Shown in pieces: positions 26,182 through 28,311 of a stretch of 64,000 nucleotides of DNA. The position numbers and the translations under genes were made by a program. The stretch is taken from IMG/VR virus record IMGVR_UViG_2639762884_000001. One strand, 5' to 3'. The notes beneath the pieces were generated by a model. That model saw only the letters and a program-made list of their open reading frames with translations, made no database searches and was not told the DNA's origin. The number at the start of each line of letters is the position of its first letter. Position 1 is the first letter of the stretch. Source of the stretch: a virus. Taxonomy: Duplodnaviria; Heunggongvirae; Uroviricota; Caudoviricetes.

Positions 26182-27500
26182 AAAAGTTGATCGCACTTAA
26201 GCATAAGCTGGACGAAATGAAAGCTATGGGAACCAATGCAAAAAAAGAGGCATTGGCCAACATGGATGACTTTGAACAAAGCATGGTTTCATTGATGCTC
26301 AACCCTTTCATCCGTTTTGGGGTAAAGAAATACAAAGTGGCAGAGCCGCTTAGTGAGTCCGTCCCAAGTGACGAAAAAGCCATTGATGTACTGAATAAGC
26401 TGGCCTCTCGCGAGCTGACGGGGAACGCAGCAATAGCAGCTGTTGAGTCTATCGTGGCGTCAATGTGCGCCGATGGGCAGGACGTGTTCCGTCGTTTCCT
26501 CTTAAAAGACCCGAAAGCAGGTGTTGGGATTAGCCTATGCAACAAGGTTTTTGAAAATCCCATTCCGAAATTCGAGGTGCAGCTGGCGTCACCGTATAAA
26601 GAAAAAGGCGACAAATACCCCTTCAAGCCAAATCCTAAAGCAAAATGGCCGATGATTGGCAGTCTTAAGCTCGATGGTTTGCGAGTAATTTGCGAGGTTA
26701 TTGTTGACGAGGAAGAGGTTAACTTCCTTTCTCGTACTGGTAATCCAATCACGTCTCTCGATCACCTAAAGCCAGCAATGCTCGAATTAGGCAAACTTTC
26801 AGGCCACAAACACATCTTCTTCGATGGTGAAGGAACAGCCGGTTCATTTAACCAGTCTGTATCTGCATTGCGCAAAAAGAACGTGCAGGCAATTGGCGCT
26901 ATTTATCATGTTTTCGACTTCTTCCTACCGGAATGGCGGGCACAGGCTAAATCCAAAGAGTATGCAAAGACAGGTATGAAGCTGAAAGAGCGCCTGGCTA
27001 TGCTGGTGGCGTTGTTTAAAAACGATCGCAGTGAAGGCTACGCACAAGACATTCACCTGCATCCGTTCTATATCATCCATAGCCACGAAGATTTCATCGA
27101 ACGCTTCATGAAACGCCTAGACGATAACGAAGAAGGGGAGATGGGCAAAGATCCGAACTCTGTTTACGAGTTTAAACGTACCCGCAGCTGGTGGAAGTTA
27201 AAAGACGAAGATTCAGAAGATGGTGAAATTATCGACTTTGAGCCGGGCGACCCGGACTCTGGTTTTGCCAACACGCTTGGAAAAATTGTTATTCGCCTTG
27301 AAAACGGTGTGATTGTTCGTGCGAGCGGCATTAAGCATAAATATCTGGACGAGATCTGGAACAACAAAGAGAAGTACCGTGGTCGTATTGTCGAGGTTCA
27401 TTGTCACGAGAAAACGCCGGATGGCAGCTTACGCCACCCACGACTGAAATGGCCGCGTTGCTTACGCGATACAGAAGATCGAATCGGAGATAAAGAATGA
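26178..27500 (+). CDS. ATP-dependent DNA ligase
   Basis: Adenylation motif I KxDGxR present as SLKLDGLRVI; size 440 aa. Confidence 0.65.
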   Translation: MKKLIALKHKLDEMKAMGTNAKKEALANMDDFEQSMVSLMLNPFIRFGVKKYKVAEPLSESVPSDEKAIDVLNKLASRELTGNAAIAAVESIVASMCADGQDVFRRFLLKDPKAGVGISLCNKVFENPIPKFEVQLASPYKEKGDKYPFKPNPKAKWPMIGSLKLDGLRVICEVIVDEEEVNFLSRTGNPITSLDHLKPAMLELGKLSGHKHIFFDGEGTAGSFNQSVSALRKKNVQAIGAIYHVFDFFLPEWRAQAKSKEYAKTGMKLKERLAMLVALFKNDRSEGYAQDIHLHPFYIIHSHEDFIERFMKRLDDNEEGEMGKDPNSVYEFKRTRSWWKLKDEDSEDGEIIDFEPGDPDSGFANTLGKIVIRLENGVIVRASGIKHKYLDEIWNNKEKYRGRIVEVHCHEKTPDGSLRHPRLKWPRCLRDTEDRIGDKE

Positions 27501-27676
27501 TGCTCGGCTGGATGATTGCATTTTTAGCAGTTGGTTTTTTCATAGGTATTGTGGTGATGTCCAGTTGCATCAATGACTACATTAAAAGCGGTGTTATAGA
27601 AAGACGCGGTCGTATTTATCGCATTGTAGAAATAACCAACACCCAGAAGGAGATTAAGGATGATCGTATTAAGTAA
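27497..27676 (+). CDS. Small single-pass membrane protein (paralog 1 of a tandem family)
   Basis: 59 aa, MMLGWMIAFLAVGFFIGIVVM TM helix then RGRIYRIVEI motif; below the track size cut-off; overlaps the next ORF by 17 nt. Confidence 0.35.
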   Translation: MMLGWMIAFLAVGFFIGIVVMSSCINDYIKSGVIERRGRIYRIVEITNTQKEIKDDRIK

Positions 27677-27875
27677 ACGGGAGAAGGAAACGCTTCATGA
27701 AATCAGTAAGTGGCCGGAGTTCCCTGAGTACTGGAAGCCTAAAACGCGAGCTAAGTTAGAGCGTTTAGGGTTGGTTGCAAACGTTTCTGAAACGTGGTGT
27801 TCGGCCAACTACCAGTTAACTGATAAAGGGAAAGTATTGCTACAGCAATTAGTAGAATCAGGAGTGTTAAAATGA
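27660..27875 (+). CDS. Hypothetical small protein
   Basis: 71 aa, strong RBS aaggag 7 nt before ATG. Confidence 0.45.
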   Translation: MIVLSKREKETLHEISKWPEFPEYWKPKTRAKLERLGLVANVSETWCSANYQLTDKGKVLLQQLVESGVLK

Positions 27876-28024
27876 TTCCATACATCTCATTAGCTTTTAT
27901 GGGTGGCTTCCTTATCGGCTTCGGCATCTGTCGTGATTTAATTAAGCAGGAACTTAAAACCAAAACACTGTGCATCGGAAAGCGTGTGTATCGGGTAGTT
28001 CATGAAACAAAGGTGAAAAAATGA
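27872..28024 (+). CDS. Small single-pass membrane protein (paralog 2)
   Basis: 50 aa, MIPYISLAFMGGFLIGFGI TM helix then GKRVYRVVHE motif related to paralog 1; overlapping start/stop (ATGA) with neighbours. Confidence 0.35.
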   Translation: MIPYISLAFMGGFLIGFGICRDLIKQELKTKTLCIGKRVYRVVHETKVKK

Positions 28025-28311
28025 GCAATTTAACTTCTTGGGAATGGTGGTTGGCCACCTATTTCTTAGCGGCCGGAGTCGCATTCGCCTTTTACGTAGG
28101 TCAGTTAGTCGTAAAACTGTTGCTGATTAAATTTGCTAGTCATAAACGTATCGATGATGGTCTGTGGCGTCTTGGCACCCTGGTGGAAACTCGCTACGGG
28201 CAACTTAAGGAGAACGAAACCATTACTATCCAGGCGAAACGATTCACTGCCACCATCACAAGAACACCTAGTCGTAGAGTGGCCTTGATCAAAAAAGTCA
28301 CAACCGAATAA
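28021..28311 (+). CDS. Small single-pass membrane protein (paralog 3)
   Basis: 96 aa, N-terminal TM helix WWLATYFLAAGVAFAFYVGQLVV followed by a beta-rich tail. Confidence 0.4.
   Translation: MSNLTSWEWWLATYFLAAGVAFAFYVGQLVVKLLLIKFASHKRIDDGLWRLGTLVETRYGQLKENETITIQAKRFTATITRTPSRRVALIKKVTTE

Follow-up and report, generated by a model that had tools for sequence, protein, structure and literature searches.

The genes described here form a cassette of four small open reading frames (ORFs), orf1 to orf4, in a 64,000-nucleotide stretch of virus DNA (IMG/VR record IMGVR_UViG_2639762884_000001; the window, below, means this whole stretch). The window belongs to an SSU5-like phage-plasmid: over positions 26000-29000 it shares 99.2% identity with Escherichia phage Cyrano, which is the pLF82 element of E. 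coli LF82, and ~78% with Salmonella phage SSU5. The cassette makes up the 3' end of a replication module, in which it follows the genes for a helicase, a primase, two unknown proteins and an ATP-dependent DNA ligase (Table 1). With 881 bases around the cassette, 752 plasmid records were matched, nearly all of them IncFIB and non-mobilizable. Among them are pMT1 of Y. pestis, ~106-kb Salmonella plasmids (pHCM2 is of this size) and elements from Klebsiella, Enterobacter and Citrobacter. All four ORFs are annotated as hypothetical proteins in SSU5 (SSU5_045 to SSU5_048) and in pJN2-26, and orf1 was left unannotated in Cyrano and in several RefSeq plasmid records.

An earlier note on this DNA had described orf1, orf3 and orf4 as three consecutive ORFs for small single-pass membrane proteins. 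The three ORFs are present on the plus strand, and two of them (orf1 and orf3) fall, as the note remarked, below the size cut-off of the ORF track, both being shorter than 60 amino acids (aa). They are not consecutive, however: orf2, a coupled gene with a soluble product, sits between orf1 and orf3. The translational coupling proposed in the note agrees with the sequence. Stop and start codons overlap as ATGA at the ligase/orf1, orf2/orf3 and orf3/orf4 junctions, orf1 and orf2 overlap by 17 nt, and a GGAG-type Shine-Dalgarno site precedes every start codon of the cassette. Scanning of the sequence from the ligase gene to orf4 revealed no promoter-like site and no convincing terminator-like site.

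Table 1. Features of the window that are discussed in the text (positions are those of the window)
Feature	Position	Strand	Basis or remark
ATP-dependent DNA ligase, 440 aa	26178..27500	+	ORF list; annotated as DNA ligase in Cyrano, SSU5 and pJN2-26
orf1, 59 aa, predicted single-pass membrane protein	27497..27676	+	ORF list; phrog_4381; annotated as SSU5_045
orf2, 71 aa, soluble, winged-helix-like	27660..27875	+	ORF list; phrog_4054
orf3, 50 aa, predicted single-pass membrane protein	27872..28024	+	ORF list; phrog_6302
orf4, 96 aa, predicted single-pass membrane protein	28021..28311	+	ORF list; phrog_4507; last gene of the operon
Promoter-like conserved sequence	28322-28356		
Structured RNA candidate	28322-28870 (core ~28362-28868, ~500 nt)	+	between the orf4 stop codon and the tRNA genes
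SsrA-like tag frame	28404-28439		within the RNA candidate
Four tRNA genes (Asn, Tyr, Thr, Ser)	29087-29644		
AT-rich ORF, 406 aa	29830-31050	-	N-terminal hydrophobic segment
Complete lysis cassette (holin, endolysin, Rz, Rz1)	16809-18227		10 kb from the small-ORF cassette

Each ORF matched a PHROG family over its full length, with E values of 9.5e-39 (orf1, phrog_4381), 1.7e-45 (orf2, phrog_4054), 1.4e-36 (orf3, phrog_6302) and 1.8e-58 (orf4, phrog_4507). All four families are catalogued without a function. Ratios of nonsynonymous to synonymous substitution rates (dN/dS) were calculated between the window and seven or eight diverged relatives per ORF, including SSU5, pMT1 and Klebsiella and Enterobacter elements, at ~69-76% nucleotide identity and with dS at or beyond saturation. 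The ratio was 0.08-0.15 for orf1, ~0.08 for orf2, 0.17-0.22 for orf3 (0.55 in one pair) and 0.08-0.11 for orf4. Purifying selection of this strength (dN/dS ~0.08-0.2) indicates that the four small ORFs are genuine genes. Conservation as coding sequence was the check on which the earlier note had staked its case, and for its three ORFs the coding pattern is present, with ratios of 0.08-0.22 at saturated dS.

The gene order is conserved beyond the reach of DNA similarity. SSU5, pJN2-26, pMT1 and hundreds of IncFIB phage-plasmids share it. In an SSU5-like lineage of K. pneumoniae (e.g. NZ_CP135166) the cassette DNA cannot be aligned to the window past the end of the ligase gene, and the order ligase, orf1-like (63-66 aa), orf2 (71 aa), orf3-like (46 aa) and orf4-like (78-83 aa) is kept with the same overlaps. 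These observations bear on the idea that the ORFs are chance reading frames in a non-coding spacer, which the shortness of two of them and the missing annotation of orf1 in Cyrano and several RefSeq records might suggest. With dN/dS far below 1 at saturated dS, with length, frame and overlaps kept across lineages without detectable DNA similarity, and with a full-length PHROG match for each ORF, this idea can be regarded as already refuted.

The membrane character ascribed to orf1, orf3 and orf4 is borne out by their hydropathy. Each contains one N-terminal hydrophobic segment, with a best 19-aa Kyte-Doolittle mean of 2.55 (orf1), 1.84 (orf3) and 2.00 (orf4), and each carries a basic tail. The predicted transmembrane (TM) segment extends approximately over residues 3-25 in orf1 and 2-20 in orf3, and both segments contain a GxxxG motif. 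There is no K or R before the TM segment in any of the three proteins, and after it K+R outnumber D+E by 9 to 6 in orf1, 10 to 3 in orf3 and 13 to 6 in orf4. Because the N-terminal side lacks K and R and the C-terminal parts are rich in them, the positive-inside rule predicts an N-out/C-in topology for all three, with 1-17 residues outside. Searches of Pfam, NCBIfam, PADLOC and the PDB sequences with the three TM proteins gave nothing significant.

The earlier note had grouped orf1, orf3 and orf4 into one paralogous family by a shared motif in their C-terminal parts. This grouping holds for orf1 and orf3. When their profiles were compared with hhalign, they aligned over 49 ungapped columns with a probability of 81-84% and an E value of ~1e-5 (1.2e-5). 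The observed score was 28.95, and shuffling of the orf3 tail columns with the TM segment kept in place gave 18.6 +/- 1.5; none of 200 shuffles reached the observed score. Similarly, the tails alone scored 17.8 against a null of 8.2 +/- 2.0, again with 0/200 shuffles reaching the score. In addition, orf1 matched phrog_6302, the family of orf3, weakly (E = 0.15) over its full length. The motif common to the two tails reads RGRIYRIVEIT in orf1 and GKRVYRVVHET in orf3, the latter being invariant in the orf3 alignment.

When a joint orf1/orf3 profile was searched exhaustively with HMMER against 1.84 billion representatives, only 23 proteins were returned, and the whole set aligns without gaps. Among the 23 are sequences that bridge the two proteins (P0110, P0111, P0119, P0120, P0121 and P0123); examples are P0111 (...DWIKQDIKSGIVRFGNRVYRVVHET) and P0119 (MMIPYI...RRRVYRVVEIT). 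The family is marked by a TM helix with GxxxG and by a tail in which R-x-Y, V and T are invariant, and the hairpin predicted to be cytoplasmic (invariant R-x-Y-R..V..T) is conserved more strongly than the TM segment. The profile-profile score, the shuffle tests and the gap-free bridging sequences together indicate that orf1 and orf3 are paralogs and constitute one family with a shared basic hairpin motif. This joins phrog_4381 and phrog_6302, until now catalogued as separate families, into a single family, a link that is new here. A lipoprotein reading of orf1, whose sequence contains 'VMSSC', was rejected: the protein lacks a basic n-region, P0011 carries R at the -1 position, P0024 has S in place of the Cys, and the distant members P0120, P0121 and P0123 are without the Cys.

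For orf4 the grouping failed. Compared with orf1 and orf3 by hhalign, it gave a probability of 0.4-1.7%, and only TM residues were aligned. Its ITIQAKRFTATITRT segment, which hhalign placed on GKRVYRVVHET, scored 5.8 against a shuffle mean of 8.2, and it stayed below the shuffle mean with the orf1 tail as well as with the orf3 tail. The addition of diverged Klebsiella members to both profiles did not bring a relation to light, and orf4-like proteins were absent from the result of the exhaustive orf1/orf3-profile search. On the evidence of sequence, tested in four ways, orf4 was rejected as a member of the family. Its separation from orf1 and orf3 is likewise new; by these comparisons orf4 has no detectable sequence relation to the two paralogs and has only a plan in common with them, an N-terminal TM helix and, after it, a predicted basic beta-hairpin.

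That plan could also mean that the three proteins are one family in which orf4 is a highly diverged, elongated paralog. In the window the predicted hairpin turn reads [GA]-[KR]-R in all three, the best hhalign alignment of the tails superposes AKRFTATITRT on GKRVYRVVHET, and a natural fusion of the orf3 and orf4 TM segments occurs in Buttiauxella. We consider such a common origin doubtful, since that tail alignment is the one scoring 5.8 against the shuffle mean, the full profiles stay at 0.3-1.7% probability even with the diverged Klebsiella members, the exhaustive search returned no orf4-like protein, and the hairpin turn of diverged orf4 homologs is SG, KG or GG and not KR.

Three further leads on orf4 were followed and dropped. 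A GxxxAxxxG zipper in orf4 looked invariant in close relatives but is not kept in the diverged Klebsiella homologs, and it was not relied on. An orf4 homolog with a match to Pfam PF13876 (P0099), which might have served as a clue to function, is a deletion chimera made of the N-terminal half of orf4 and the downstream gp49-like gene. Finally, orf4 homologs are widely named 'C-type natriuretic protein' in NCBI records (e.g. YP_006906680.1, SSU5_048). Natriuretic peptides contain a disulfide ring. No match of orf4 to the Pfam natriuretic-peptide family was found and its sequence has no cysteine, so that a ring of the natriuretic type is impossible. Only the name connects natriuretic peptides with orf4, a membrane protein of a bacterial virus, and judging from its sequence the name is best taken for an artefact of annotation.

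The tails of the membrane proteins had been called hairpin-like in the earlier note. AlphaFold2 (AF2) models of orf1 and orf4 agree with this impression at low to moderate confidence, both showing a helix followed by a beta-hairpin, although they do not prove the hairpin. The orf1 model consists of a helix (residues 3-30), two strands (34-37 and 40-43) and a second helix (44-55), with a mean predicted local distance difference test (pLDDT) of 74 and a value of ~58-66 in the hairpin. In the orf4 model (mean pLDDT 64) a long helix of residues 6-60, made up of the TM segment and a predicted cytoplasmic helix, is followed by a hairpin of strands 67-71 and 76-80 (TITIQ-AKRF-TATIT) and by a basic disordered tail. 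When the models were compared with the PDB and BFVD libraries by Foldseek, nothing matched at E <= 0.001, a result of little weight as the models are of low confidence and derive from shallow alignments; the best of the non-significant matches were prefoldin beta subunits. Taken together, the predictions suggest that each of the three proteins exposes a conserved basic beta-hairpin tail to the cytoplasm and almost nothing to the periplasm.

The interleaved orf2 is of a different type. It has no hydrophobic segment (Kyte-Doolittle 0.33), and it matched winged-helix families weakly (HTH_45, E = 0.18; the SSO5209 family, E = 0.013; the C-terminal winged helix of Csa3, E = 0.0015). These weak matches suggest a small soluble winged-helix-like protein of the DNA-binding type.

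To the conserved order there are natural exceptions. In a survey of 146 assessable loci, which were chosen via orf4 or the orf1/orf3 motif and were not deduplicated, 125 had the full cassette order. In 14/146 loci, all of an E. coli clade (e.g. plasmid ESBL242), orf1 was precisely lost and orf3 kept, so that the ligase gene is coupled straight to orf2. The opposite case, orf3 missing and orf1 kept, was seen at one locus (L108), and in 2/146 the orf3 tail and orf4 had been lost to a transposon or a foreign gene. Reciprocal loss of orf1 or orf3 is compatible with partial redundancy of the two paralogs. Variants without orf1, without orf3 and orf4 or even without the ligase gene persist as plasmids, and the cassette is therefore dispensable for plasmid maintenance.

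Some loci carry fused genes. In a separate Klebsiella clade of plasmids and viral contigs (L011, L085-L087, L089 and L090) a deletion joined the N-terminal 75 ligase residues to the C-terminus of orf2; the rest of the ligase gene, orf1 and the greater part of orf2 are gone, and orf3, orf4 and the RNA described below are kept. Buttiauxella plasmid p1WJP83 contains the fusion ORF of the orf3 and orf4 TM segments (L012:2724-2897), and in P0099 the N-terminal half of orf4 is joined to the C-terminus of a downstream Phage_gp49_66 (PF13876) protein. The latter two look like deletion products, and the region looks like an indel hot-spot.

Expression of the cassette in the lysogenic state could be read from RNA sequencing (RNA-seq) data of LF82 lysogens grown in LB, which had been re-analysed in the paper describing Cyrano (PMC9928086, Table S1). 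The genes CYRAN_36 to CYRAN_39, which correspond to the ligase gene, orf2, orf3 and orf4, gave averages of 5.9, 6.4, 5.0 and 7.6 units, with a floor of 4.99; orf1 is unannotated in Cyrano and hence has no reading. Genes of the same element that are expressed in lysogeny reached 96 (repressor), 151 (CYRAN_40) and 7084 units (CYRAN_43). The cassette genes are also outside the list of morons in that paper, and morons read 100-7000 units (PMC9928086). The ligase gene, orf2, orf3 and orf4 are thus silent in the plasmid (lysogenic) state.

These data bear on the functions that the earlier note had put forward for tandem small membrane paralogs of temperate phages, exclusion and membrane targeting. 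As superinfection-exclusion or lysogenic-conversion factors made by the prophage, the proteins would fit the tandem arrangement of small membrane proteins in a temperate element, and the stretch from the ligase gene to the tRNA genes is an indel hot-spot, as moron regions are. However, expression in the Cyrano lysogen is at the floor and none of the genes was detected as a moron; the cassette has no promoter of its own and is coupled to the ligase gene; and PADLOC gave no match. Furthermore, incoming phage DNA and tails are usually blocked in the periplasm, and the C-terminal tails of orf1, orf3 and orf4 are predicted to be cytoplasmic. Exclusion is disfavoured by this argument from expression and topology, which is new here, and an exclusion or conversion function in the prophage appears very unlikely. 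The other suggestion, membrane targeting, may still apply in a loose sense.

A role in the timing of lysis, as holin-, antiholin- or pinholin-like proteins, is still less probable. Small size, a single TM segment and a charged basic C-terminus would suit such proteins, but these features are generic and do not discriminate, and a weak match of orf4 to the holin family phrog_2359 (E = 0.027) is confined to the TM segment (residues 8-34). A complete cassette of holin, endolysin, Rz and Rz1 genes lies 10 kb away, and coupling to replication genes implies early production. A holin reading was rejected because these lysis genes are located elsewhere; the small ORFs follow the ligase gene. With expression at the floor in the lysogen and lysis genes elsewhere, we infer that the cassette is a lytic-phase companion of the replication genes, and neither a lysogenic-conversion locus nor a lysis cassette.

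Directly downstream of orf4 the window contains a structured RNA candidate (Table 1). Conservation of the region greatly exceeds that of the flanking genes, with some blocks that are near-invariant where the ORFs are only ~70-75% identical. RNAalifold, applied to 13 sequences, proposed 106 pairs in 11 helices, with 98.8% of cells paired and 11 pairs showing compensatory changes. None of 500 shuffles reached the observed covariation score, paired fraction or counts of two-sided changes, and 1/500 reached the number of further pair types. Many of the invariant pairs are G-U, pointing to an RNA of the plus strand. In the diverged Klebsiella lineage an RNA occupies the same place, and a 25-bp helix is maintained there via at least 8 two-sided changes. 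A conserved promoter-like sequence, TAAGTATTTACTTA...TATAAGAT, stands at the beginning of the region.

Within the RNA a short frame, GCA AAC GAA GAA GTC TAT CTG GCA GTA GCC TAA TAA, encodes in ten codons ANEEVYLAVA and then two stops, which resembles the tag of E. coli K-12 ssrA (ANDENYALAA, likewise with two stops). Relatives carry the in-frame variants ANEDTYLAVA, ANEDAYLAVA, ANEDSYLAVA, ANDNQYLAVA and ANDDVVLMAA, and in the main lineage the last five codons of the tag show synonymous changes only. The Rfam model tmRNA_permuted (tmRNA, transfer-messenger RNA) gave a match centred on the tag frame with 39.9 bits (E = 2e-6), which is under the gathering threshold of 47, and a sub-threshold match to a tmRNA T-arm piece was found in the Klebsiella lineage; matches to Rfam tmRNA models in the window itself reached only 14-17 bits. 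ARAGORN did not call a tmRNA. The Klebsiella RNA (L097:4822-5420; also L094, L100 and L108), whose tag is ANDDVVLMAA, has a 153-nt insert in place of the simple hairpin at 28517-28552 of the window. When folded, this insert shows a 7-bp acceptor-like stem (GGGUGAU/GUCACUC) and a canonical T-arm, GCGGGUUCGAUUCCCGC, which differs at two positions from the T-arm of E. coli tmRNA, and the RNA ends in a terminator-like hairpin.

In the RNA of the window lineage a tRNA-like domain was not found. In a local alignment, E. coli ssrA matches best precisely at the tag, with a score that is not significant, being reached by 58/300 shuffles. The tmRNA relationship is therefore a strong lead and not a demonstration; possibly, the RNA is a new tmRNA-derived RNA of SSU5-like phage-plasmids. 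In the E. coli plasmid records among the matches listed, RefSeq has no annotation at its position, and identity with sR082 or sR083, small RNAs found on pMT1 by Y. pestis RNA-seq, was rejected as both map elsewhere. In an exhaustive survey of ssrA in RefSeq plasmids and viruses in 2014, mycobacteriophages were the only phages reported to have the gene, and Bacillus phage G and mycobacteriophage DS6A were mentioned as cases beyond the dataset (PMC4131195). A literature search found no paper connecting tmRNA with SSU5, pHCM2 or pMT1.

Further downstream, the tRNA array differs among close relatives: the window has four genes, Cyrano three (Asn, Thr, Ser), pJN2-26 two (Asn, Ser) and SSU5 one annotated gene (Asn) in the stretch examined. 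The 406-aa ORF that follows occupies the place of the gp49-like and glutaredoxin genes of Cyrano. It had no match in Pfam and PADLOC searches and looks like an accessory or moron-type insertion.

As to function, the reading that we prefer, with a probability of roughly 0.35, is that orf1, orf3 and orf4 work on the cytoplasmic side of the membrane while the phage grows lytically, where they would tether phage DNA or replication proteins. The proteins would be made alongside the replication enzymes in the lytic cycle and not in the plasmid state. Through their TM helices (GxxxG) and hairpins they could form a small oligomeric complex on the inner face of the membrane, in which orf1 and orf3 would be partly redundant, and this complex would tether some partner in the cytoplasm or sequester it. 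Given the operon and the interleaved winged-helix protein, the partner is more likely phage DNA or replication proteins, possibly reached via orf2, than a host factor.

Several points speak against this tethering role. Translation, membrane insertion, topology, oligomerisation and the partner are all predicted or deduced from sequence, the confidence of the AF2 hairpins is low (pLDDT ~55-66), and the alignments are shallow (effective number of sequences ~1.7). The lysogen RNA-seq data speak to lysogeny only and not to timing in the lytic cycle. Neither p16.7 of phage phi29, the analogue considered below, nor any other solved structure gave a sequence match in the searches of solved structures or a Foldseek match. 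Finally, the variants that lack orf1, orf3 and orf4 or the ligase gene get on as plasmids.

Alternatively, the TM proteins may have no part in replication and serve in host takeover or early-lytic exclusion, by binding and modulating a host inner-membrane protein such as a transporter, division protein or protease, in the way of many small bacterial membrane proteins, or by blocking a secondary infection in lytic growth, in the way of T4 Imm and Sp. Small single-pass proteins with a conserved GxxxG are typical of helix-helix binding to membrane proteins, the operon is of the early/middle type and not expressed in lysogeny, and natural variants do without the genes, which is common for accessory takeover genes. 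On the other hand, it is the predicted cytoplasmic hairpin that is conserved most strongly and not the TM segment, hardly any part is predicted in the periplasm that could meet an incoming tail or DNA channel, and the deep and tight linkage to the ligase gene and the winged-helix protein would be left unexplained. We regard this alternative as unlikely, though it deserves to be taken seriously.

The tethering role can be extended to a more specific and quite improbable model, in which orf1, orf3 and orf4 form a hetero-oligomeric platform through small-xxx-small packing of their TM helices and through their hairpins, and the platform recruits DNA-bound orf2. Lytic replication of a Gram-negative siphophage or phage-plasmid would then have a membrane anchor of its own. 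Possibly, the platform would also be functionally linked to the tmRNA-like RNA that always lies immediately downstream.

The genes themselves were already known as hypothetical proteins and as PHROGs of unknown function. They make up an ordinary, if neat, cassette of small proteins, and the finding is a modest one. It provides a validated case of phage membrane proteins below 60 aa that annotation pipelines overlook, as happened to orf1; it merges two PHROGs without function into one family with a defined motif, and it corrects a misleading public name of orf4. As hundreds of IncFIB phage-plasmids that are clinically widespread carry the cassette, among them pMT1 of Y. pestis and the pHCM2-like Salmonella plasmids, any function found for it would apply broadly. 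The larger pay-off lies in the neighbouring unannotated RNA with its SsrA-like tag frame.

Among known systems, small membrane proteins by which phages exclude superinfecting phages include T4 Imm and Sp, HK97 gp15, P22 SieA and T5 Llp, and imm and sp of T4 are lytic-cycle genes. The cassette proteins resemble them in being small membrane proteins encoded by a phage. They differ from them in that no Pfam, PHROG or PADLOC homology connects the two groups, in that their conserved part is predicted to be cytoplasmic, in their silence in the lysogen and in the lack of a conserved lipobox. The nearest functional analogy, which does not imply homology, is offered by p16.7 and p1 of phage phi29. The p16.7 protein has an N-terminal TM anchor. 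The predicted N-terminal TM segment of the cassette proteins is similar, and so is the position of their genes in a replication-module operon, after helicase, primase and ligase and with ATGA coupling. Unlike p16.7, the cassette proteins are much shorter and have a predicted hairpin in place of a helical DNA-binding domain, and their setting differs from that of phi29 in the Gram-negative host and in replication that is not protein-primed. Both p16.7 and p1 are small, early, membrane-anchored proteins that organise phi29 replication at the membrane, and their cytoplasm-facing part binds DNA or terminal protein (PMC4974454).

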